Of a stretch of DNA of 64,000 nucleotides, positions 7,455-30,791 are shown one piece after another (the stretch's first letter is position 1; each line of letters opens with the position of its first letter). Under the pieces are notes generated by a model. That model was not told the origin of the DNA and did no database searches. It worked only from the letters and a program-made list of their open reading frames with translations. A program made the position numbers and the translations under genes. The DNA comes from Candidatus Uhrbacteria bacterium RIFCSPLOWO2_01_FULL_47_17 (lineage in GTDB: Bacteria > Patescibacteriota > Patescibacteriia > UBA9934 > GWF2-40-263), in NCBI GenBank assembly GCA_001791305.1, contig MGEI01000004.1:61101-125100 (forward strand), given 5' to 3'.

Positions 7455-8498
7455 ATGAAAAAAATTTTACCTCTTTTAATCCTGTTCGTTCTTGCGGGTG
7501 CGGGATGTTCCGCGGCGCCAAAAGCAAATAAAGCGGACGGTGGAATTTTGAAAACCGTTGATGCGGGAAAAATTTGGTCACAAAGTTCGCTTGTGCCAAC
7601 AGCAAAGGGAATCGGCACACTCGCAACCGCAAACATCATTACCATGGAAATGGATCCGCAGGATAAAAATGTCTTGTATGTGGGAACGCGTGAAGATGGA
7701 TTTCTCTATTCGGATGACGCCGGAGTTTCTTGGCGCCAACCAAGAGATAAAGCGCTCTCAACCGGATTTATTCCATCCATCAAGATGGATCCAAAAAATG
7801 TGTGTACGGTTTATGTCGCAAAGGGTCCGCGTCTTTACAAGACCATCGACTGTATGCGCACGTTTCAAAATGATGCGTACATTGAGAGTCGTGAAAAAGT
7901 GAGTGTCGTGAAAGTGGCGGTGGATTGGTTTAATCCGCAAACGGTTTGGATTGGACTTTCAAATGGTGATATTCAAAAAAGTTTGGATGGCGGAAAAACG
8001 TGGAGCAATGTGCTTCACGTGAAAGATGTCATTACAGATATTCTCATCAACCAATCCGACAGCCGCATGGTGCTTGTTTCAACATCGTTAAAAGGTATGA
8101 TGAAAACCGGAGATGGCGGAGCAACATGGGAAGCCGCAGAGCTGAAAGGAATGGCCGGAGCGACAACGGTTTATGATTTGATTCAATCAAAAAATTCTCA
8201 GACGGTGATTGCGGCAACGAAATATGGTCTCATTCGTTCCACAAGTTTTGGGGCGGTTTGGGAACCGATCAAACTTGTGACCGCGCCAGGGCAAGTAAAT
8301 ATTCAAGCGGTCGGCATGGATGTCTCAAATCCGGACGTTCTGTATTACGCAACCACCGCAACGTTTTATAAATCGCAAGACGGCGGCGCAACCTGGCAAA
8401 CAGGAAAGCTCCCCTCAAATCGCCTCCCTCGCGCGATTCTCGTTGACCCAAGTTTGAATACCGTGTTATATATCGGAGTCGCAACGGAGGCGAAGTAG
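7455..8498 (+). CDS. Lipoprotein with BNR/sortilin-type repeats (Ycf48-like beta-propeller)
   Basis: Signal peptide with lipobox LAGAGC; repeated S-x-D-x-G-x-T-W motifs (DAGKIW, DGGKTW, DGGATW). Confidence 0.7.
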   Translation: MKKILPLLILFVLAGAGCSAAPKANKADGGILKTVDAGKIWSQSSLVPTAKGIGTLATANIITMEMDPQDKNVLYVGTREDGFLYSDDAGVSWRQPRDKALSTGFIPSIKMDPKNVCTVYVAKGPRLYKTIDCMRTFQNDAYIESREKVSVVKVAVDWFNPQTVWIGLSNGDIQKSLDGGKTWSNVLHVKDVITDILINQSDSRMVLVSTSLKGMMKTGDGGATWEAAELKGMAGATTVYDLIQSKNSQTVIAATKYGLIRSTSFGAVWEPIKLVTAPGQVNIQAVGMDVSNPDVLYYATTATFYKSQDGGATWQTGKLPSNRLPRAILVDPSLNTVLYIGVATEAK

Positions 8499-8584
8499 CC
8501 CAAGGCTTCAGCCTTGGTTCTCCATGTTAGATACAATGATCAATCAGATGCAGTGACCAAGGCTAAAGCCTCAGATTACGATAA

Positions 8585-9151
8585 ATGAAATCGACTATGC
8601 ATATATTCCTGTCATCCAAGAAGCCTTTATTCGACGCGGTACTTGATCACTTGCATAAAGAACTCGGAACCCTTCGTACCGGACGCGCAACTCCACAACT
8701 TGTGGAGGATATTCGTGTAAGCGCATATGACTCGACGATGGAGCTTAAAGGACTCGCATCGATTTCGGTTCAAGATGCAAAAACAATTGTGATTGATCCA
8801 TGGGATAAGGGATTAACGCAAGCGATCGAGAAAGCGATTCGTGATTCTGGAACAGGCCTCTCGCCCGCAGCAGATGGCGGAGTGATTCGCATTATGCTTC
8901 CTCCGATGACAGAGGAAAATCGCGTGAAGCTTGTGAAGCTCATGAAAGAAAAATTGGAAGATTCACGCATCGCGCTTCGAGGAGTGCGTGAAGGGGTTCG
9001 TGATGAGATTCTCGAGAAGGAGAAGAACAAAGACATGAGCGAAGACGAAAAGTTCAAGTTGCTCGACGAACTCGAGAAGCTGACGAAAGAGTTTAATGAG
9101 CAGATCAGTGCAATGGGAGAGAAGAAAGAAGATGAAATCATGACCGTGTAA
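8585..9151 (+). CDS. frr: Ribosome recycling factor
   Basis: LRTGRATPQLVEDIRV…; 188 aa, typical RRF length and motifs. Confidence 0.9.
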   Translation: MKSTMHIFLSSKKPLFDAVLDHLHKELGTLRTGRATPQLVEDIRVSAYDSTMELKGLASISVQDAKTIVIDPWDKGLTQAIEKAIRDSGTGLSPAADGGVIRIMLPPMTEENRVKLVKLMKEKLEDSRIALRGVREGVRDEILEKEKNKDMSEDEKFKLLDELEKLTKEFNEQISAMGEKKEDEIMTV

Positions 9152-9153
9152 TT

Positions 9154-10479
9154 ATGGAGCATTCAAAAATCACCATGGAAAAAATTGTTTCACTCGCGAA
9201 AACTCGCGGGTTTGTTTTCCCTGGTTCGGATATTTACGGCGGACTCGCAAACTCATGGGACTACGGTCCACTTGGAGTTGAATTGAAAAACAACATTAAA
9301 CAAACATGGTGGAAAATGTTTGTGCAAGAGCGCCTCGACATGGTTGGGATCGATGCCGCACTCATCATGAATCCAAAAGTCTGGGAAGCGTCGGGGCACG
9401 TCGCTACGTTTAGTGATCCGCTCGTCGAATGTAAAACATGTCATGAGCGTTATCGCGCCGATCAGATCGATCTTGGGGCGCCATGTGTAAAATGCGGCAA
9501 CAAGGGAACGTTTACCGATCCTGCATCGTTTAATCTCATGATGAAAACATGGCTCGGTCCAAAAGAGGACGCGAGTGCTGTTGCGTATTTCCGACCAGAA
9601 ACCGCGCAGGCGATGTTTGTGGATTTTCCGAATGTGATTACATCGAGTCGTAAGCGCGTTCCGTTTGGAATGGCACAGATTGGAAAAGCGTTCCGCAATG
9701 AAATTACTCCGGGAAATTTTATTTTCCGCACACGCGAGTTTGAACAAATGGAGATCGAGTACTTCGTGCATCCATCCGATTGGGAGAAGTTCTTTGAAGA
9801 GTGGCTCGCGAATATGTACAAGTTTATGGACCGCGTCGGAATAGACGCGGCTCGTTCGCATAATCTCGAAGTCGCAAAAGATGAGCTCGCGCACTACTCG
9901 AAACGTACAGTCGACATTGAATTTGATTATCCGTTCGGACGCAAAGAATTGTACGGACTCGCATATCGCACAGACTTCGATCTTTCCACACATGCGAAAT
10001 ACTCTGGATCGAACATCGTGTATACAGACCCAATGACAAACGAGAAATATGTTCCGCATGTGATTGAACCCTCTTTTGGTGTCGATCGCACACTTCTCGC
10101 TGTTCTCCTCTCGGCCTACGACGAGGAAACAGTCGCATCCGAAGAAGGGGAAGGAGACACACGCGTTGTTTTGCGATTCAAAAAAGAAATTGCCCCAATC
10201 AAGATTGCTATTTTGCCACTCAGTAAAAAAGAAGAACTTTCAAACGTCGCGCGCCCAATCGCAGAAGCGCTTGCAAAATATTGGCGTGTTGACTATGACG
10301 AAACGCAATCCATTGGAAAGCGTTACCGACGTCAAGACGAAATCGGAACGCCGTATTGTGTCACGGTCGACTTCGAGTCACTCGAAGACAAAGCAGTCAC
10401 CATTCGCGATCGCGATACGATGAAACAAGAACGGGTACCAATTGCCGAGCTCGAAGTGTGGTTCAAAAAACAATTTTAA
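9154..10479 (+). CDS. glyQS: Glycine--tRNA ligase (homodimeric class II type)
   Basis: FVFPGSDIYGGLANSWDYGPLGVELKNN…, class II motifs, 441 aa. Confidence 0.9.
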   Translation: MEHSKITMEKIVSLAKTRGFVFPGSDIYGGLANSWDYGPLGVELKNNIKQTWWKMFVQERLDMVGIDAALIMNPKVWEASGHVATFSDPLVECKTCHERYRADQIDLGAPCVKCGNKGTFTDPASFNLMMKTWLGPKEDASAVAYFRPETAQAMFVDFPNVITSSRKRVPFGMAQIGKAFRNEITPGNFIFRTREFEQMEIEYFVHPSDWEKFFEEWLANMYKFMDRVGIDAARSHNLEVAKDELAHYSKRTVDIEFDYPFGRKELYGLAYRTDFDLSTHAKYSGSNIVYTDPMTNEKYVPHVIEPSFGVDRTLLAVLLSAYDEETVASEEGEGDTRVVLRFKKEIAPIKIAILPLSKKEELSNVARPIAEALAKYWRVDYDETQSIGKRYRRQDEIGTPYCVTVDFESLEDKAVTIRDRDTMKQERVPIAELEVWFKKQF

Positions 10480-10480
10480 A

Positions 10481-10605
10481 AAAAGTGAAAGAGTGATGGA
10501 GTGGAAGAGTGAAGGAATGAGACAACTTTTTCTTTTTTGAAACGATGAAACAAAAACAAAAAGCTGTTTCTCTTCCACCACTCTTTAACTATTTCACTCT
10601 ATCAC
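10481..10605. repeat. Purine-tract inverted-repeat element, copy 2 (AAGTGAAAGAGTGATGGAGTGGAAGAGTGAAGGAATG … CTCTTCCACCACTCTTTAACTATTTCACTCTATCACTC)
   Basis: Same AGTGAA-repeat family as 3675-3806; between glyQS stop and M16 peptidase start. Confidence 0.55.
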
Positions 10606-10622
10606 TCTGCCTCCCCCCCCCT

Positions 10623-11891
10623 ATGCCCCACCAAAACTTCACTTTAAAAAATGGTATGCGCGTTCACTTGGTTCCGGTTTCTGGAACGCAAGCGGTGACG
10701 GTTTTGGTTCTCACAAAAGTTGGATCGCGTTACGAAACACCAACCCTCAGCGGGGCATCGCACTTTATTGAGCACCTCATGTTTAAGGGAACAAAGCGCC
10801 GTCCAACAACGCTCGACATTTCTCGTGCGCTCGACTCGGTCGGGGCACAATACAACGCATACACAAACAAACACGAGACGGGGTACTACATCAAAATCGA
10901 CGCGAAACACACATCGCTCGCGGTCGACATGTTGCATGACATGGTATTCAACTCGAAGTTTGATCAAAAAGAATTGGATCGCGAGCGCGGGGTGATCATT
11001 GAAGAGATCAACATGTATCAGGATAGTCCGATGAGACATGTCGAGGATTTGCTCGAAGGTCTTGTGTTTGATGGAAACACGCTCGGATGGGAAATTGCGG
11101 GATCGCACAAAACCATGAAAGAAATGAAACGCGATGAGATTATTGCGTTTCGTGATTCGCATTACATTCCGTCGCGTATGGTTGTGTCTGTTGCGGGAAA
11201 TATTCCAAAAGATATTAAGAAGACGCTCGAAAAAACATTTGGAAGCGTAAAGATCAGCAAGGCGGAACATCCAACGTTCGCGCCGTTTGTAAAATCGAGC
11301 ACAAAGAAAAAAGTAAACGTTCAATTTAAAAAGACGGAACAGATTCACCTCATGTTCGGATTTCCCTCGTTTGGAATCGGTGACGATCGCAATGAGGCCC
11401 TCGCACTCCTGTCTTGCATTCTCGGCGGCACCATGAGTTCACGTTTGTTCATCTCGGTTCGTGAACGCAAGGGTCTCGCGTACATGGTGCGCTCGAGTAA
11501 CACAGCGTATGACGACGCGGGTGTGTTTTCCGTTCAAGCTGGACTCGATAAATCTCGCGTGCTGCTTGCGTACAAGACGATTATGCAAGAGCTTCGCAAA
11601 ATTAAACGCGAAGGCGTGACCGCAAAAGAAGTGAAAGAGGCGATTGATCACGTGCGCGGAAGTATGTTGCTTGCGATGGAAAGCTCTTCGTTCCAAGCGG
11701 AATGGTACGGCGATGACGAATTGTTTCTGAACAGAGTTCGCACCCCAGAACAATTCATGGCCAAACTTTCGAAGATCACCGCGGCAGATATCAAAGCGAT
11801 CGCAAACGAAGTGATCAACGAAAAGAATATGAAAATGGCGGTCATTGGACCGTATAAAAATGAAATGGATTTTTTGAAATCCATTTCGTAA
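10623..11891 (+). CDS. M16-family zinc peptidase (insulinase-like)
   Basis: HFIEHLMFKGT (HxxEH inverted zincin motif); start taken at MPHQNF because ORF-track N-extension is the repeat element. Confidence 0.85.
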   Translation: MPHQNFTLKNGMRVHLVPVSGTQAVTVLVLTKVGSRYETPTLSGASHFIEHLMFKGTKRRPTTLDISRALDSVGAQYNAYTNKHETGYYIKIDAKHTSLAVDMLHDMVFNSKFDQKELDRERGVIIEEINMYQDSPMRHVEDLLEGLVFDGNTLGWEIAGSHKTMKEMKRDEIIAFRDSHYIPSRMVVSVAGNIPKDIKKTLEKTFGSVKISKAEHPTFAPFVKSSTKKKVNVQFKKTEQIHLMFGFPSFGIGDDRNEALALLSCILGGTMSSRLFISVRERKGLAYMVRSSNTAYDDAGVFSVQAGLDKSRVLLAYKTIMQELRKIKREGVTAKEVKEAIDHVRGSMLLAMESSSFQAEWYGDDELFLNRVRTPEQFMAKLSKITAADIKAIANEVINEKNMKMAVIGPYKNEMDFLKSIS

Positions 11892-22827: not shown

Positions 22828-23055
22828 TTTCTTCCTTTGTCCTCATGAAATTGAGGCGGCGGTACTTTAAACTAAATGGGATGATTTGTCCAAATCAGCC
22901 AAGTGTTGTAAAACAATACTATTAATTCTCTGAATGTTTTTATGTTTGGAAAAAATGAATCAAAAACAAAAACAACACATGATAATTTAAGAAAAAAGGT
23001 GTTCAACATGTTTGATAGAATGAGGGGTGAGTGTTTTTTCAAAAAAGCCGCATAA

Positions 23056-23091
23056 AAAAGACTCCCCGTCGCCGAAAGGCTATGGGGAGTT
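23056..23091 (-). terminator. Rho-independent terminator closing the kinase-vWA-PK-like operon
   Basis: rc: ACTCCCCATAGCCTTTCGGCGACGGGGAGT then CTTTTTTAT, immediately after the 23092 stop. Confidence 0.6.
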
Positions 23092-24159
23092 TTAGGTATA
23101 AGCCTCTTCGAATACCCGAAAGGCATTGATGGCCGTGTTGAGGAGGTCCTTGTGAAGACAGAGTTCGTCACAAAGGAGAAAACGTTTGTAGCCGATCTCG
23201 GCGAGCCAAGCGAGCTCAGAGAAGTCAGCACAGGACGGGGTTGGGTCGTGAAAGATGCGCACGATCAGGTCGAGAAGGTTCGGATCCTGAGCATGCGCAT
23301 GAATAGCCTGTAGCGCGCGGAGTTTTTCCGGTGGCGGCATGGCGCGTGTTGCAATCGAGAGCAAGATTCGTGAACCTACGCAGGCTTCCGGGTCTTTTTT
23401 GATAATCAGCTTCACAGCCTTCAGAATATCGTGCGGTCGCTGCACTTCGATGAAGAGATCTCCACGAGCTGCCGCGAGTACCACACCATCCGTCTTTTTG
23501 AATGCATTCTCAACGAACCGCAATCCTTTTTCGTTTTCGATCTTGAGCCAGAGTTCCGCGTCTTGTCCGACGAGTTCTCGAAGTTGATCGACATCCGATT
23601 GGGATTCCGTGTAGGAGAGAAAAAATCGGGTGAACCCCGCACGTTTCGCCGCCTCAATCTTGCGAAGCTCGTGATCTGTGAACAGATTTCCGAGGACTTC
23701 GAGACTGGGGTGTCGAATATGCAGAGATTCACCGTGATTCACTTTGTATTTCGGGCCGAACGTTCGGCCGTCTTTGAAGATCAATCTTCGACCACCGTCT
23801 TCGATCCAATCCAGTGTTGCAAAGTCCGCACCGGCCTTGAAGGCAACAATGCGAGCGCTTGGATCACGCAGATCGATACGAATCGGATGGTTCAATATGA
23901 CTTCGAGGTGACCTTCGTGCTCGCGAGCTTCCTCGACGCGCAGTTGGCGACCTTTGACGTCGTAGAACAGGGGAACGGGCGCGTCACGAACTTGTAGGTT
24001 CGAGATCGCCGCTTCCAATTCTTCGATCGGAGCCGTGGCCGGATTCACCCGGATTCCGTCGAGACGCGCATCAATTGCGAACTCGGGGAAGTGGGCGAAT
24101 CCGGGCCACAGCGTTGCGATCAACTCAAATGAGTGATCCGACATCATTCCCCTCGTCAT
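23092..24159 (-). CDS. Minimal pyruvate-kinase-fold protein (PEP/pyruvate-binding TIM barrel with B-domain-like insert, no C-terminal regulatory domain)
   Basis: RVNPATA (cf. PK RLNFSHG), KGRQLRVEE (cf. KGPEIR), KIENEKG…DGVVLAAARGDLFIEV (cf. SKIENQEG…DGIMVARGDLGVEI), SIATRAM (cf. CATQMLESM); likely start at internal Met after GAGGGG (24144); overlaps vWA gene 3' end. Confidence 0.55.
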   Translation of the reverse strand: MTRGMMSDHSFELIATLWPGFAHFPEFAIDARLDGIRVNPATAPIEELEAAISNLQVRDAPVPLFYDVKGRQLRVEEAREHEGHLEVILNHPIRIDLRDPSARIVAFKAGADFATLDWIEDGGRRLIFKDGRTFGPKYKVNHGESLHIRHPSLEVLGNLFTDHELRKIEAAKRAGFTRFFLSYTESQSDVDQLRELVGQDAELWLKIENEKGLRFVENAFKKTDGVVLAAARGDLFIEVQRPHDILKAVKLIIKKDPEACVGSRILLSIATRAMPPPEKLRALQAIHAHAQDPNLLDLIVRIFHDPTPSCADFSELAWLAEIGYKRFLLCDELCLHKDLLNTAINAFRVFEEAYT

Positions 24160-25081
24160 CCAACCCGTGGGTGATCGAGCGGCCGTCGGAGACCGCGTTC
24201 GCGAAGATCGGCTTCAGCGCCGCCATGACGACACGCACTTGCTCGGGCGTCTGACGACTCTCAAGTTCGCGCTTGAACGCTTCGATCTTGCCGGAGTAAT
24301 GACCGAGAATGCCGAAGATCACGTCCACGATGCGGTTCTCATCCGGAAGCAGAGCAATGTGATCCGCGCCGATGAGATCTTCCCAAGTCTTCGTGATCCA
24401 TGCCTGATCGCTGCTGCTGTCATACGGCTTTTGGATGAGGTACACGGAGAATTTCCGTGTGAGCTCTGCGAACACTTCCTTCGTGGTCATCTTCTTGTCG
24501 ATTTTCACACGTGCAATATCACGCGCACGCGCGACCGTCACTTCATCATACGGCGCTTCGTCCGTGTTGAAGATCACAATCGGCTTGCGGCTTTGGTTTG
24601 GCACATGCACGTTGCGTGCGATGTAGAGTGCCGCGAGTTCGGAAGTCTCATGACCGCCGCCTCCGCCACCTTTCGTGTGAACCAGTTCGCCGAGCCGAAC
24701 TTCGTGTCCTGCTTTCCCGCGCGTGAATTCACGCACTTGGAGCGGATACCGCTCGTTGTGCATTGCGTCACCGAATGCGCAGAATGCGACGTCTGTATCT
24801 TCGGAAAGATACATCGTGCGCAGTTCGTGATCTAGGTACAAGGCTTTCGTGCGTACCGTGATCGGCCAGCTCGACATCGAACCAGTCATGTCGTTTACGA
24901 GCAGGAGAGCGTTCTCTGCCGCGGTCGTGATGGATTCCGGGAGCAAATCCCAATCCTTCGTGCCTTTCTGTTCCGCTTCCGCATAGCTGCGATTTGCATC
25001 ATGCGTGTACGTTGCGCGGGCCCGCGGCGGATCATAGTCCGGCATCCAGCTTGAACCTTTGTAGTTAGATGATTCACTCAT
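24125..25081 (-). CDS. von Willebrand factor type A (vWA, MIDAS) domain protein, TerY-like
   Basis: MIDAS motif LLVNDMTGSMSS; ~318 aa; ATG overlaps kinase TGA (ATGA) with AGGAG SD inside kinase 3' end. Confidence 0.7.
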   Translation of the reverse strand: MSESSNYKGSSWMPDYDPPRARATYTHDANRSYAEAEQKGTKDWDLLPESITTAAENALLLVNDMTGSMSSWPITVRTKALYLDHELRTMYLSEDTDVAFCAFGDAMHNERYPLQVREFTRGKAGHEVRLGELVHTKGGGGGGHETSELAALYIARNVHVPNQSRKPIVIFNTDEAPYDEVTVARARDIARVKIDKKMTTKEVFAELTRKFSVYLIQKPYDSSSDQAWITKTWEDLIGADHIALLPDENRIVDVIFGILGHYSGKIEAFKRELESRQTPEQVRVVMAALKPIFANAVSDGRSITHGLDDEGNDVGSLI

Positions 25082-26355
25082 GGCACACTCCTGATCGGGT
25101 TTTCACCCGGGTTGAACAACTCACGGCCAAACGTTTTGCGCCGCAAGCTGCGTGTAAAATCGAACAGTCGATCCGCGTACTGCGGGCGATGTTCGATCTT
25201 CTTTTCGATCAATCGCTTGATCAGATCGGAAAGAACAGGGGGAACATGATCGGGGAAATGATCTTCGTCCACCGCACTCATGTTTCCACCGTTCAACAGA
25301 TACAACGCAACTTTTCCAAGCGCGTAGATATCCATCTGACGAATCGGCGGCTCACCACGTACTTGCTCAAGCGGAGCGAAGTGGTCGGTGTAGCCAAGCG
25401 AACTCGATGCATCCGTCGGCTTCACACTCGCAAGACCAAAGTCCACGAGCGAAACCGCATACGTCTGTTCGTTCACAATGATGTTCTGCGGCTTCAGATC
25501 GCTGTGGATTACACCGTGTACATGCAAGTATTGCAAGATGTTCATCAAGCGTTCAAGAATCCATGCAACGCTTTCCGGATGGATCGCGCCGTCACGTTTC
25601 ACAATCGCTTCGAGCGTCTCGCCTGGAATGTAGCTCATCACGATCGCGAGCGTTCCGTCTTCAAGACGAATCACACGACGAATCGCGGGAATGCCATGAT
25701 GACGCAGATCCCACATCTTGCGCGCTTCGTCGAGCAGATTGGCTTGGCGTGCAGCGTTCAGTTTGGAGCAGTGCTTTACACAAACGGGTTTCTCGACTGT
25801 GAGATCCGTTGCAAGATAGGTGCGACCAATCGCGCCTTCTGCAATGAATTTCTCAATCTGATACTCGCCACCAATGATGCGCTTTGCGGCATCTTTGGGT
25901 TTTGCGGGTGCCGCGTCGATTGTTTTCGTTGGGATGTGGTCGCAGTAGAGACAGGCGTTGCCTGGATCATCTGTGCGAATGACACCACCGCGTTCATAGA
26001 TAGGGAACTCACCACAGCGCTTGTTTTCACAAGGCTCGGTTTGTTCCATAATCTGCGCAATCATATTGACCACGCGCAAAACTTGCACACTCGGAACATT
26101 GATTCCAGTCGCTTGCACCGCACGCGTAAACGCTTCGGTATTTGCGAGGTCGAAAATGTCGCCGAAGGTAAAGGTCTTCAAGGCTCGTTCACCAAGAGCG
26201 TGAACCAGAATTTCGTTTGTGTCTCGAGAGGATGTCTCAAGAACACGTGAAATGAGTTTCTCAAGCGCCTTTCGCTTGTAATCCGGCACTTCTCTTGTGC
26301 GCGCGAGTTCATTTGGACTGAAGTCTCCGGGCATCTGTTCTCCTATTTGTTCCAT
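25078..26355 (-). CDS. Hanks-type Ser/Thr protein kinase with N-terminal ~160-aa helical + zinc-ribbon region
   Basis: Gly loop AEGAIGRTY, VCVKH lysine, catalytic loop HSDLKPQNIIV (non-RD), DFGLA, APLE; N-terminus CENKRC…CLYCDH. Confidence 0.85.
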   Translation of the reverse strand: MEQIGEQMPGDFSPNELARTREVPDYKRKALEKLISRVLETSSRDTNEILVHALGERALKTFTFGDIFDLANTEAFTRAVQATGINVPSVQVLRVVNMIAQIMEQTEPCENKRCGEFPIYERGGVIRTDDPGNACLYCDHIPTKTIDAAPAKPKDAAKRIIGGEYQIEKFIAEGAIGRTYLATDLTVEKPVCVKHCSKLNAARQANLLDEARKMWDLRHHGIPAIRRVIRLEDGTLAIVMSYIPGETLEAIVKRDGAIHPESVAWILERLMNILQYLHVHGVIHSDLKPQNIIVNEQTYAVSLVDFGLASVKPTDASSSLGYTDHFAPLEQVRGEPPIRQMDIYALGKVALYLLNGGNMSAVDEDHFPDHVPPVLSDLIKRLIEKKIEHRPQYADRLFDFTRSLRRKTFGRELFNPGENPIRSVP

Positions 26356-26419
26356 TTGAAAGGAACTGGCCTTATCTTACGTATTTTCGGCTTTGCGTCA
26401 AATGGTGTGTGTTGTCGAA

Positions 26420-26452
26420 AAGAAAAACAAAACTCCCATTACGGGAGTTTTT
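26420..26452 (-). terminator. rlmN terminator overlapping its stop codon (AAACTCCC-GTAA-TGGGAGTTT + U-run on minus strand)
   Basis: Hairpin 26429-26450, then TGTTTTTCTTTTCG on minus strand. Confidence 0.55.
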
Positions 26453-27614
26453 CTTCTAGATTTGCACTTTCATTCTTAATCAATTGTCCGCATGCGGCGT
26501 CGATCTCGGAACCTTTCGAGTAACGGATCGTGTACGTCACACCGTTCTTTTCGAGAACATGTCCGAACGCTTCGATCGTTTCCGCTTCACTCGATGTGTA
26601 GCCACTTTCCGTAAAATTGAATGGGATGAGGTTTACGCGAATTTTTCCAATGCGGTTCACGAACACCGCGAGTTGCTTTGCGGCGGGAAGAGAATCGTTT
26701 ACACCTTTCAACATCACATATTCAAACGTAAGGTGATGGCGGCGGTTGCCGAATTTTTTCAAGTATTTGCGTGTCCATTCGTCGAGCTTTGGAAGGAACT
26801 CGTCGTAGGATGTTTTGACGATCTCTTTTCGAACCTTTGTATCCGCACTGTGAAGAGAAACAGCCATGCGCACGTGCGGCCATTCTGCGTCCGTCAGGAT
26901 TTGCTCGAGACGAGGCAAGATGCCGACGGTCGAGACCGTGATGTGTGTGAGTCCAATGTCGGTCTGCGCGATAATTGTATTCAAACTTGCTTTTGTGTTT
27001 TCATAGTTCGCGAGCGGCTCACCCATGCCCATGTACACAATATTACTGATGCGACCGTGATCAACAACGCGCGGCGTTTCTGTTTGTGCCGAGTCTTCCT
27101 CTTCTTCGTCATCAAGCTCGAAGGCGTCTTGTTGTTTTGGTGCTGGTTTCGAGGAACCCTCGCTCTTTGTAATCTCTGGATGGTCTTTCAAAAAATACTT
27201 CCACAAACGGATTTGGTCGACGATTTCATCCGTATCGAGGTTTCGAGTCAGTCCCATTTTTCCGGTCGCGCAGAACGAACAGGCCATGGCACAGCCGATC
27301 TGAGTCGAGACACAGATGGTCCATTGCTCGCGGCGGTTTTTCATGAGGACCGTCTCGATATACTTGTCGCCTTCGACTTTCACGATAGCCTTGAACGTTT
27401 CTTTTTTGGAATCATTCTGGATCAATTGTGTTGTAAGCGAAATGAAGGGAACGTCCGCTTCGAGTTTTTCGCGCATGTCTTTTGGCAACGTCGAAACATC
27501 CGCCCAAGAGCGAACAGAGACATCAAACAATGCGGTTTCAACTTGCTTCAAGCGAAACGCTTTCATGTCCGGAAAGAGGGATTGGATTTTTTCAGCTCGT
27601 GAAATATAGGACAT
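26439..27614 (-). CDS. rlmN: 23S rRNA (adenine2503-C2)-methyltransferase RlmN (radical SAM) with acidic insertion
   Basis: CxxxCxxC (GCAMACSFCATG), MGMGEP; ~35-aa Glu/Asp-rich insert (DDEEEEDSAQTETP); start taken at MSYISRA because upstream codons are the GC hairpin. Confidence 0.85.
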   Translation of the reverse strand: MSYISRAEKIQSLFPDMKAFRLKQVETALFDVSVRSWADVSTLPKDMREKLEADVPFISLTTQLIQNDSKKETFKAIVKVEGDKYIETVLMKNRREQWTICVSTQIGCAMACSFCATGKMGLTRNLDTDEIVDQIRLWKYFLKDHPEITKSEGSSKPAPKQQDAFELDDEEEEDSAQTETPRVVDHGRISNIVYMGMGEPLANYENTKASLNTIIAQTDIGLTHITVSTVGILPRLEQILTDAEWPHVRMAVSLHSADTKVRKEIVKTSYDEFLPKLDEWTRKYLKKFGNRRHHLTFEYVMLKGVNDSLPAAKQLAVFVNRIGKIRVNLIPFNFTESGYTSSEAETIEAFGHVLEKNGVTYTIRYSKGSEIDAACGQLIKNESANLEEKLP

Positions 27615-27785
27615 AGATGGGGTTACCCCTCTCCCTTCCGAGGGGGAGGGCATGGGTGGGGGTATTATTCACCGCAGAATGCCCGAAAAACTTGAATCCG
27701 TCAAAGAATCGATTGACAAACATTCATTTTTGGCGTATCGTTGCGTTTCAGAATCGTTCATTTGACCCAAAACGGAGCGTTCTCA

Positions 27786-28134: not shown

Positions 28135-29934
28135 TTATGCAACTCCGTGTTTCTTGCGTTCAAACTCTTTCAAATATTTTTTGCGGATACGAACCGTCTT
28201 TGGTGTTACCTCGACCAATTCGTCGTTGTCGATGTACTCAAGAGCGCGCTCGAGCGTCATGTCGAGTGCTGGTGTTAATTTCACGGCCATGTCTGCTCCG
28301 GCGGAGCGCATGTTGGTGAGTTTCTTTTCGCGGATGGCGTTTACCACTATGTTGTCCTTCATGGACATTCCAATCACCATTCCTTCATACACTTCTGCTC
28401 CTGCTCCAACGAAGAGAACTCCGCGAGCTTCAAGGCCTTCAAGAGCGTAAGGAGTTGTAATGCCATCAAATCCATTAATGATGGATCCTGTTGAGCGGCG
28501 TTCGATCTCACCTTTGTATTCGCCATAGTGTGCGAATTGGTGAGAGAGCGTTCCTTCGCCTTTTGTACTTGTAACGAATTCAGATTGATATCCGAGGAGT
28601 CCACGTGTTGGAATATGGTATTCAAGACGTGTGTTTCCGTTTTCGGATTGCATGTTTAACATTTCACCGCGGCGTTTTCCGAGTTGTTCAATAACAATTC
28701 CCGCGAGTTGGTCTGGAACATCCACAACCACAATCTCGATCGGTTCTTGTTTTTGTCCGTTTACTTCTTGGAAAATAACGCGTGGTTGAGAAACTTGAAG
28801 TTCAAATCCTTCGCGACGCATCTGCTCGATCAAAATCGACAAGTGCATTTCTCCACGACCACTGACCGTAAAGACGTCCGCCGTGTCCGAGAATTCAATT
28901 TTCATTCCGACGTTGACTTCGAGTTCTTTCAAGAGTCTTTCTCGAATTTGTCTCGAGGTAACTAATTTTCCTTCGCGTCCAGCAAACGGTGAGTTGTTCA
29001 CCATGAAGTCCATTTTCAAGGTAGGCGCATCGATGGCAATACTCGGCAACGGTTCTGCAGTTGCGCTTTCGGCGATAGTGTCCCCAACGTAAATGTCTGG
29101 GATTCCCGCAATCTGCACAATGTCTCCCGCTTCTGCCTCTTGGACTTCAATCTTGTTCAATCCTTTGTTGGTAAGAAGTTTTGTAATTTTATTTGTCTTG
29201 CGTGTTCCGTCTGGCGTAATAACCGTAACGGTCATTCCAGCGCGAACCGTTCCTTCGTAGATGCGTCCAACCGCGAGGCGGCCGATGTAAGAATCATACG
29301 CGAGGTTTGCGGGTTGCATGCGCATGGGAACAGATGTGTTGTTTTGTGCTGGGGGAACCGTTTTCAAAATGAGATCAAAAAGAGGTTGAAGATCTTTGGA
29401 TTCGTCCGTAAGTTCCATCTTTGCAATCCCTTCACGGGCAATCGCGTAAATATGTTTGAAGTCGAGTTGCTCATCGGTGGCTCCGAGTTCGACGAAGAGA
29501 TCGAAAATCATGTTGAGCACAACATCTGGACGCGCCGATGGTTTGTCGATTTTGTTGATGACAACAATCGGCTTGAGTCCGAGCGCGAGCGACTTGCGAA
29601 GCACGAACTTGGTTTGCGGCATTGGGCCTTCATAGGCGTCAACGAGAAGCAAAACAGAGTCCACCATGCGCAGAACGCGTTCCACCTCTGAACCAAAGTC
29701 TGCGTGGCCTGGAGTGTCCACAATGTTGATTTTTGTGTCGCCAATTTGAATGGCGGTATTTTTTGCGTAAATGGTAATTCCACGCTCTTTTTCAAGTTCG
29801 TTTGAATCCATCACACAAACCTCAATAACGTCACGTTCATTGAACGTTCCGGATTGTTTGAGCATGGCGTCCACAAGCGTGGTCTTACCGTGGTCAACGT
29901 GAGCGATAATCGCAATGTTTCGAAAGTCTTTCAT
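28135..29934 (-). CDS. typA: Translational GTPase BipA/TypA
   Basis: [31 protein letters not shown]… near-canonical BipA N-terminus; 599 aa. Confidence 0.9.
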
Positions 29935-29999
29935 AGTGGCGAAAGGATACCCAAAAAAAGAGGCACTGTCAATGGGACAACGCCTCTTTTCCGTTCTGA

Positions 30000-30791
30000 T
30001 CAATTTTTTGCGAGCACGGCAGGTTCTTCTGTTTTTTCCGATTTCTTTTCTTGTGCCTCAAGACGGCGTTTAATTTCCTCTTGTGTCATACCTGCGAGAG
30101 CGTAGGCGCGTGCAAGGTTGATGCGCTCAATGTATTGTTTGAGTTTGTCTTGAAGTTCCATAAGGTCTCCCGCAACAACGATGGGCGGAATAAACGCTTG
30201 AACATCAGGATCTGGAATCATTTCAACGGTTTCATTTTCTGGATGGAAGACGAGCGCAAGAAAAGAAGCCCACTCTTCATCAGATATCGTGTCAATGTTT
30301 ACGTTAAATGCGGGGTTCTCTTCTGTTCCTGTATTCTCAGACGTTAGACCGAATATATCTGATGGAATGTCCTCATCAAGACCAGAGTGTCTGCGTCTGT
30401 CTGTGCACTTGAGATGTAACTTGCTAAATAGATCAACGACGTACGCTTTTGCGTTATCCAACTTGAGATACGGATTTATTTTTGGACGTTCAGCAACCTC
30501 TGGAGGTTTTTCGGGAAGGCCTTTGAGGATTGGGAGATCAAGTTGTTTCGGAAGATCCTCAATTTCACGTGCCGCGCGCGCCATGTCTGTTTCCGGTGTT
30601 GCGTGTGCCTCATCGACCTGTTCGTCCGGTGTTTTCTCGAGAGAGCTCGAGTCTCTTGTAGGTTCTTCGGAAATTTCCTCAGATGGTTTCACGATTGCCA
30701 CCGGAGCCTCCTCATTCGAGACCATTCTTTCCATCCCAAACAAACCCGCCGCGGCAAGTCCCAATTTCGTAAGTGTGTGTTTATAGCTCAT
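30000..30791 (-). CDS. Hypothetical secreted/anchored protein, acidic low-complexity N-terminus
   Basis: Start at MSYKHTLTKLGLAAAGLFG (signal-like); remainder of ORF-track extension lacks a start context. Confidence 0.45.
   Translation of the reverse strand: MSYKHTLTKLGLAAAGLFGMERMVSNEEAPVAIVKPSEEISEEPTRDSSSLEKTPDEQVDEAHATPETDMARAAREIEDLPKQLDLPILKGLPEKPPEVAERPKINPYLKLDNAKAYVVDLFSKLHLKCTDRRRHSGLDEDIPSDIFGLTSENTGTEENPAFNVNIDTISDEEWASFLALVFHPENETVEMIPDPDVQAFIPPIVVAGDLMELQDKLKQYIERINLARAYALAGMTQEEIKRRLEAQEKKSEKTEEPAVLAKN

Follow-up and report, generated by a model that had tools for sequence, protein, structure and literature searches.

We report here an operon of three genes in a 64,000-nucleotide stretch of DNA, referred to below as the window, from Candidatus Uhrbacteria bacterium RIFCSPLOWO2_01_FULL_47_17 (contig MGEI01000004.1, positions 61,101 to 125,100), a bacterium of the Candidate Phyla Radiation (CPR). 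The operon encodes a Hanks-type Ser/Thr protein kinase, a von Willebrand factor A (vWA) protein and a homolog of pyruvate kinase (PK) devoid of the C-terminal domain. The triad is similar to signalling operons with a vWA protein and a kinase, but the part of it that stays constant is the pair formed by the vWA protein and the short PK. We are nearly certain of what the three proteins are and that the operon is conserved. Public records contain proteins with 100% identity to those of the window over 96-99% of the query. The genes form a tight array, given here in the order of transcription with positions of the window.

25078-26355, minus strand: Hanks-type Ser/Thr protein kinase, 425 aa (Pfam Pkinase, 1.1e-30, residues 165-361)
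24125-25081, minus strand: vWA-fold protein of an unnamed family, 318 aa (fold shown by predicted structure)
23092-24159, minus strand: PK A+B-domain homolog without the C domain, 355 aa if counted from the first ATG but probably 350 aa, with the start at 24144 (Pfam, AlphaFold and Foldseek)

Conservation of the three-gene unit

An alignment of the PK-like protein was scanned against one genome per species (185,579 species), and approximately 318 stretches coding for relatives were obtained. Linkage was then counted in the best 80 of these 318 loci, using hidden Markov model (HMM) searches of six-frame open reading frames. A vWA gene was found directly upstream of the PK-like gene in 76 loci and a kinase gene was present in 68. 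The order kinase, vWA, PK-like on one strand was observed in 57, in addition to minor variants, and contig ends explained most of the missing partners. Median intergenic gaps were around 30 nt or less, and many of the genes overlap. The linkage that an earlier note, made from the sequence of the window alone, had proposed to look for in other genomes is thus present.

The loci occur in many CPR lineages (Uhr-, Davies-, Sungii-, Falkow-, Collier-, Levyi-, Adler-, Nealson- and Buchananbacteria, among others) and in DPANN archaea, including a complete chromosome (CP010425.1). Among 1.84 billion representative sequences, the PK-like family comprised 157 clusters at 50% identity (E ≤ 1e-30), nearly all of 300-380 aa, and mean column identity in the alignment was 48% across bacteria and archaea. 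In a neighbour-joining tree, most of the DPANN sequences fell into one clade nested inside the CPR diversity.

We also examined the genes adjoining the unit. All-against-all BLAST clustering and Pfam counts in 85 downstream and 77 upstream neighbours revealed no fourth conserved gene and no enrichment of restriction, CRISPR or toxin genes. The flanks consist, by Pfam, of translation factors, tRNA synthetases, sigma-70, Mur ligases, NAD synthase and similar genes. PP2C is absent from the window operon and adjacent to the unit in 2 of 77 related loci. No canonical PK was found in the window or in any flank examined, and there is no AAA+ gene in the operon and none that recurs in the flanks.

The commonest Pfam family upstream was a PhoU-domain protein (6 of the 77 neighbours). 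A BLAST cluster upstream of the kinase in 12 loci (L013, 2878-3828, and 11 others) is probably the PhoU family as well, and one further locus contains a PHO4 phosphate transporter. The upstream recurrence of PhoU-type genes could be due to shared ancestry or to a link with phosphate signalling. In locus L050 (202-7047), a second, divergent vWA-vWA-PK-like set without a kinase was observed beyond a 509-aa adenylosuccinate-synthetase-like gene, and extra vWA paralogs are present in L042 (825-2419) and L068 (3844-5917).

The third gene encodes a pyruvate kinase homolog without the C domain

In the third gene product, the PK barrel of Pfam (PF00224) was recognized only in residues 153-255, with a score of 41.8 bits against a cutoff of 30. 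When the AlphaFold model of the protein (pLDDT 91.6) was subjected to a Foldseek search, the top 50 structures were all PKs (E = 1e-17, query-normalised TM-score 0.6-0.68), and the PK sequence blocks quoted in the earlier note are present in the translation. The protein has an A-domain TIM barrel with an inserted B domain and stops after the A domain, so that the C-terminal allosteric/tetramerisation domain is absent, as had been claimed. With PK the only family found by Pfam and in the Foldseek top 50, an HpcH, CitE or other aldolase identity was rejected. Translation from Met6 (24144) corresponds to the public 350-aa call, and the same start is used by relatives.

The residues of E. coli PykF that act in catalysis were then located in the family. 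Arg32, Asn34, Asp66, Lys68, Arg73, Lys220, Glu222 and Asp246 (R32/N34/D66/K68/R73/K220/E222/D246) correspond to the invariant residues R37/N39/D67/K69/R74/K206/E208/D234, and the position of Thr278 is taken by an invariant Ser, Ser263. As to the Lys/Glu/Asp/Thr set previously described as kept, the first three residues (K206, E208 and D234) do align with their PykF counterparts, while Thr is replaced by Ser. A placement of Thr278 by hhalign within a lineage-specific insertion was set aside. We used Ser263 because HMMER and the gap-free alignment of insertion-free members agree on it, and because it fits the β-7 strand of the model. The insertion in question is the following.

23242-23355, minus strand: 38-aa two-helix insertion after the β-7 Ser263-Arg264 motif, present in a subclade only (from the alignment; helices at residues 276-289 and 293-303 of the model, pLDDT 67-78)

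Compared with the canonical enzymes, E. coli PykF and rabbit PKM1, the PK-like protein shares the A-domain TIM barrel, the B-domain lid and the Arg, Asn, Asp, Lys, Arg, Lys, Glu and Asp residues for phosphoenolpyruvate (PEP) binding, Mg2+ binding and phosphoryl transfer, with the change of Thr278 to Ser. It differs in lacking the C-terminal domain (300-380 aa versus about 470-530), in the replacement of the Ser and Thr of the K+ site, in a distinct invariant set in the B-domain lid (N90, H91, K108, D112 and G143-E144-S145) and in being encoded after a vWA gene (76/80 loci). The score against the PK equivalog model TIGR01064 was 47.7 bits, the cutoff being 306.4. Some sources nevertheless label relatives of the protein 'pyruvate kinase'.

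The vWA protein

Although no Pfam vWA, NCBIfam or PADLOC model matched the second gene product at E ≤ 1, the predicted structure has a vWA fold, and the metal ion-dependent adhesion site (MIDAS) noted earlier is present. It consists of D64-x-T66-x-S68 (24878-24892) in the sequence DMTGSMS together with E145 and D174, and D64, S68, E145 and D174 are invariant in 35 homologs. The protein further contains a conserved disordered N-terminus (MSExxDY), a Gly5 loop and a C-terminal three-helix bundle. The N-terminus is acidic-aromatic and nearly invariant across the family. In the public annotation, the protein starts at Met13 (306 aa) and the N-terminal MSESSNY... segment is omitted. Because the MSExxDY N-terminus is nearly invariant, we prefer the ATG at 25081; this is probably the true start, and the deposited gene model too short. 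The window protein also matches phrog_2971, a phage family without a known function.

The protein kinase

The first gene product displays the features of an active Hanks-type kinase that the earlier note had listed. The Gly loop (AEGAIGRT), the β-3 Lys (VCVKH), HxD-x-KxxN (HSDLKPQN), DFG and APE (APLE) are all found in the window translation, along with a CxxxxC...CxxC motif, and the kinase motifs are kept in 79 orthologs. The Cys residues belong to a separate N-terminal region.

25876-26355, minus strand: lineage-specific N-terminal region of the kinase, residues 1-160, in place of the usual J domain, with CxxxxC...CxxC at 25942-26031 (from the searches described here)

No Pfam family, including DnaJ, matched this region, nor did a J-domain HMM built from orthologs. 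As phmmer found it only in the closest relative (L001) and Pfam returned nothing, we regard the region as lineage-specific. An apparent J-domain alignment, with FGD in place of HPD, was rejected, the HMM giving no support. The typical kinase of the triad is approximately 340 aa in length and has a J (DnaJ) domain at the N-terminus, then the kinase domain, and after it only a short C-terminal tail. Pfam DnaJ scores were 48-62 bits in the four orthologs tested. The J-domain HMM was matched by 68 of 80 kinases, and the HPD motif is intact in 45 of those 68 and degenerate in the rest. The kinases of L003, L010, L014, L040 (3963-5012) and L084 are among those with a J domain. We found no description of fusions between a J domain and a Hanks-type kinase in the literature searched.

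Constant and replaceable parts in distant relatives

Distant relatives of the operon differ in the partner of the vWA/PK-like pair. In Chloroflexi contigs labelled Anaerolineae (L078, 4466-6900, and L079, 2533-4643), the kinase is replaced, and a 188-aa cytidylyltransferase-like gene with an HxGH motif precedes the vWA and PK-like genes. In contigs of Candidatus Helarchaeota, an Asgard lineage (L099, 188-3564; L100, 8001-11384; L102/L103, 8001-11319; and L101, 6036-7653), a vWA gene is followed, in this order, by a short gene resembling thymidylate synthase, one of QueC type and one for a PK-like protein without the C domain. The Helarchaeota vWA protein is a distant homolog (33% identity), and both in these variants and in those of Chloroflexi (CxxC...CxxC) the vWA protein carries a C-terminal Zn ribbon. 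The thymidylate-synthase-like and QueC-like parts are fused in L100 (466 aa), and a PK-like-QueC-like fusion protein was also found (P0297, 568 aa). The J domain is absent from the Chloroflexi and Helarchaeota forms and from deep archaeal forms. Judging from these gene arrangements, the vWA and PK-like proteins are the constant core, and the kinase is a replaceable part.

Comparison with TerY-P and other vWA systems

The earlier note had interpreted the operon as a triad of the TerY-P type in which a PK-fold enzyme occupies the position of the phosphatase. TerY-P is defined by a TerY-like vWA protein, a PP2C phosphatase and a kinase that bears a Zn ribbon or OB fold at its C-terminus (PMC11090510). 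This source attributes the triad to Anantharaman et al. 2012 and its antiphage variant to Gao et al. 2020. The operon resembles TerY-P in being compact and self-contained, in combining a MIDAS vWA protein and a Hanks kinase with a third enzyme, and in occurring in varied genomic contexts. However, the interpretation is not supported. The window operon lacks PP2C, which is rare next to related loci as well (2/77), and the vWA protein is not TerY-like by sequence, matching nothing in Pfam, NCBIfam or PADLOC (version 2 of which we assume to hold TerY-P models). The kinase carries its Zn ribbon (window) or J domain (relatives) at the N-terminus and not, as in TerY-P, a Zn ribbon or OB fold at the C-terminus. 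The constant pair is vWA and PK-like, not vWA and kinase, and the flanks examined are housekeeping genes, with no sign of a defence island. Since the kinase can be exchanged in distant relatives, the triad is not centred on the kinase, and there is no 'slot' in it for the PK-like gene to fill.

Other phospho-signalling units also contain a vWA protein that is encoded with, or regulated by, Hanks-type kinases, but these rely on FHA readers and PP2C/PP2A erasers and include neither a PK-fold enzyme nor a J domain. In the literature searched and in the model libraries, we found no description or name for a kinase/vWA/PK-like triad and no curated model for genes 2 and 3. The suggestion that the system is an undescribed variant is in agreement with these results.

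Copies in phage and viral contigs

The 485-kb record LR745208.1, which its depositors labelled an uncultured phage, was found to carry a complete triad with a J-domain kinase. The triad lies at 7916-10894 of the segment L104 (123756-144631 of the record), and its neighbours there are a Dam methylase, two HNH endonucleases, Thg1, an ADP-ribosylglycohydrolase and tRNAs, one of them an odd tRNA with a four-base anticodon (ttta) according to ARAGORN. We found no phage structural genes in 100 kb more of the record, where PHROGs gave only functions of the replication and repair type, namely a helicase, a DNA ligase, an RNA ligase and a transposase. The phage status of LR745208.1 rests on the depositors' label and on its HNH, Dam, Thg1 and tRNA content. 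The full triad is also present in 15 of 17 IMG/VR contigs, in which it is flanked by homologs of genes that flank it in LR745208.1. In five of the IMG/VR contigs (L083, L084, L085, L090 and L097, 52-204 kb), tRNA arrays, in which Val, Gly, Ser and Trp genes are duplicated, flank the triad on both sides, and L084 and L085 also carry a tRNA whose CUA anticodon would read amber codons and which ARAGORN assigns to Pyl. The contigs with tRNA arrays may be huge phages that use recoding; they may be viral or cellular.

A possible mechanism

Taking these results together, we propose a mechanism to which we give somewhat less than even confidence. The short PK would be an active Mg2+-dependent phosphotransferase with PEP or a close analogue as the donor, since every PEP and Mg2+ ligand is conserved. 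As for the acceptor, a nucleoside diphosphate would be the simplest guess, another phosphate acceptor being conceivable. The constant adjacency and overlap of the two genes suggest that the short PK and the vWA protein form a stoichiometric complex, in which the vWA protein would supply in trans the partner-binding or regulatory role of the missing C domain. The kinase would be the regulatory input, switching the vWA/PK-like pair by Ser/Thr phosphorylation, and in most relatives, the window not included, its J domain would couple the switch to DnaK/Hsp70. The module would be an accessory, horizontally exchanged unit and not the main glycolytic PK of the cell. The small number of matching stretches (approximately 318 among 185,579 species genomes), the nesting of the DPANN clade in CPR, and the copies in LR745208.1 and IMG/VR are consistent with an accessory and mobile nature.

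Several observations weigh against this proposal. The Ser and Thr of the K+ site are replaced in the family (S36 by A41 and T67 by V68), and PykF His37 and Lys156, whose counterparts in rabbit PK we take to be nucleotide contacts, are not conserved. With the K+ site altered and these two residues lost, the acceptor may be a compound other than ADP. The physical association of the vWA and PK-like proteins is deduced from gene overlap and co-occurrence, and the accessory nature from sparse distribution. The link to Hsp70 does not apply to the window, in which the kinase has no J domain. In addition, a close relative of the PK-like protein (L005, 5980-7080), from the same subclade and with the insertion, is encoded at a site where neither a vWA nor a kinase gene can be recognised in the 6 kb upstream, and where the adjacent genes specify two unannotated proteins of approximately 260 aa.

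A broader and more doubtful proposition is that the vWA protein and short PK are the core of an unrecognised class of PEP-driven systems. In such a class, the acceptor would be a protein residue or a modified nucleotide instead of ADP, and a swappable NTP (nucleoside triphosphate)-using enzyme, be it a J-domain kinase, a nucleotidyltransferase-like or a QueC-like protein, would provide control or substrate, the module being exchanged among CPR, DPANN, Asgard, Chloroflexi and huge phages.

PK is among the most studied enzymes, and to our knowledge, a natural PK family that lacks the C domain and is tied to a vWA protein and a protein kinase has not been described. CPR bacteria and DPANN archaea represent a large share of microbial diversity, and few of the conserved gene sets typical of these lineages are functionally known. 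The triad is a conserved CPR/DPANN gene set with clear catalytic residues, and hence open to tests with recombinant proteins. As the name 'pyruvate kinase' is given to these proteins by some pipelines, a member of this operon may be counted as the glycolytic enzyme when the metabolism of CPR and DPANN organisms is reconstructed. Copies in giant phages, together with the connection to Hsp70 through the J domain, point to a regulatory circuit that would join the energy status of cells with minimal genomes to protein phosphorylation and chaperones.

Alternative explanations

A first alternative is an anti-phage or conflict system resembling TerY-P, in which infection would be sensed by the kinase and the vWA protein, while the PK-like protein, as the effector, would for example drain PEP or ATP or phosphorylate a phage or host target. 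Two of the three parts, the vWA protein and the Ser/Thr kinase, are analogous to TerY-P (PMC11090510). The distribution is sparse, extends across domains and includes phages, and an exchangeable third partner is a trait shared with many conflict systems. QueC-like enzymes, which appear among the variant partners, are reported to act in Qat and type IV CBASS defence. Among PADLOC profiles of defence kinases, the window kinase scored best with PD-T4-6 and mad6. These matches, however, cover only the generic kinase domain, and the vWA and PK-like proteins match no PADLOC model. The flanks are housekeeping in nature, restriction, CRISPR and toxin genes are not enriched in them, only 2 of the 77 loci have a PP2C gene alongside, and a phosphatase role is impossible for a PK fold. 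The family also evolves slowly, as seen in its mean column identity, unlike typical defence genes. The defence role raised earlier is not supported by this context, nor by the presence of the module in a genome deposited as that of a huge phage, and we consider it unlikely.

Could the PK-like protein be the working glycolytic PK of the organism, with the vWA protein and kinase as dedicated regulators that stand in for the missing allosteric domain? CPR bacteria and DPANN archaea live by fermentation, all catalytic residues for PEP and Mg2+ are retained, the neighbours are housekeeping genes, no canonical PK was seen in the window or flanks, and relatives already bear the name 'pyruvate kinase' in some sources. 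On the other hand, the approximately 318 matches are few when CPR and DPANN lineages number in the thousands (an estimate, not a measured value). The module also occurs in a phage genome, the PK-like protein can be fused to a QueC-like domain, and in Helarchaeota its gene clusters with thymidylate-synthase-like and QueC-like genes. Together with the altered K+ site and a TIGR01064 score of 47.7 bits where 306.4 are required, these facts render a glycolytic role less likely still than defence.

A third possibility is a modification pathway, in which the vWA protein or a nucleotide would be the substrate of the variable enzyme (kinase, nucleotidyltransferase-like or QueC-like), and the PK-like protein would supply the nucleotide substrate or phosphorylate it further, for example as a nucleoside diphosphate kinase. 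The alternative partners are all NTP-using enzymes, fusions of QueC-like parts with thymidylate-synthase-like and PK-like parts exist, and the N-terminus of the vWA protein is nearly invariant, acidic-aromatic and disordered. QueC-family enzymes are reported to modify proteins. This evidence is entirely circumstantial, and the nearby thyA-like and queC-like genes may simply serve housekeeping functions. We rate this pathway below a glycolytic role in probability.

MoxR-vWA activases (CbbQ-CbbO, which acts on Rubisco, NorQ-NorD, which acts on nitric oxide reductase, and RavA-ViaA) likewise place a vWA/MIDAS adaptor next to a metabolic enzyme with an ATP-driven chaperone link, and by analogy the MIDAS of the vWA protein might grip the PK-like protein as a client while the J-domain kinase brings DnaK/Hsp70 to remodel it. 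We judge this the least probable of the alternatives, as there is no AAA+ partner, the link would be a J domain (Hsp70) instead of a MoxR AAA+ protein and is missing from the window and from the deep archaeal, Chloroflexi and Helarchaeota forms, and the active-looking kinase domain to which it is fused would be left unexplained.

Layout and boundaries of the operon in the window

The sequence of the window displays the following signals within and around the operon.

25078-25092, minus strand: AGGAG Shine-Dalgarno sequence (25088-25092), 7 nt upstream, and ATGA stop/start of the kinase and vWA genes (sequence read directly)
26374-26401, minus strand: promoter-like -35/-10 pair, TTGACG and TAAGAT separated by 16 nt, 5' of the kinase gene (consensus match at 9 of 12 positions)
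26429-26451, minus strand: intrinsic terminator of rlmN at the 5' edge of the unit (10-bp stem followed by a T run)
23053-23090, minus strand: 3' intrinsic terminator, hairpin at 23061-23090 and U run (-18.3 kcal/mol, z = -2.75)

The kinase TGA (25078-25080) overlaps the vWA ATG (25079-25081), and the 3' end of the vWA gene overlaps the start of the PK-like gene by 20 nt (Met6, 24144) or 35 nt (first ATG). The geometry claimed for translational coupling (ATGA, AGGAG and the 20-35 nt overlap) is thus all present in the sequence. The claimed downstream terminator also folds as expected, with a hairpin of 7+3 bp followed by UCUUUUUU. In the case of the upstream region, the TTGACG/TAAGAT pair is present, but it constitutes weak evidence for a promoter, as five such sites were seen in the region against 2.5 expected from shuffles, about twofold. 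The unit had further been called a self-contained inserted module. Self-contained it is, with its linkage conserved elsewhere. Insertion, on the other hand, is not established: the GC content of the triad is 0.52-0.57 and that of rlmN/typA 0.47-0.49, but the downstream aminotransferase (up to 0.565) is as GC-rich as the triad, and a recent insertion is therefore not demonstrated.

In the window, the GTPase TypA/BipA (28135-30003) is encoded one gene away from the triad, and in two or more distant loci (L050, 7124-8947, and L078, 7058-8914, among them) its gene directly follows that of the PK-like protein. Translation GTPase domains occur in 4 of the 85 downstream neighbours, and the proximity of TypA/BipA is possibly a coincidence; its recurrence in a few loci and that of PhoU probably reflect shared ancestry of related genomes. 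The RlmN-like radical SAM protein encoded upstream (26439-27653) contains an acidic low-complexity insert of approximately 45 aa (KSEGSSKPAPKQQDAFELDDEEEEDSAQTETP), which divides the Pfam match in two.

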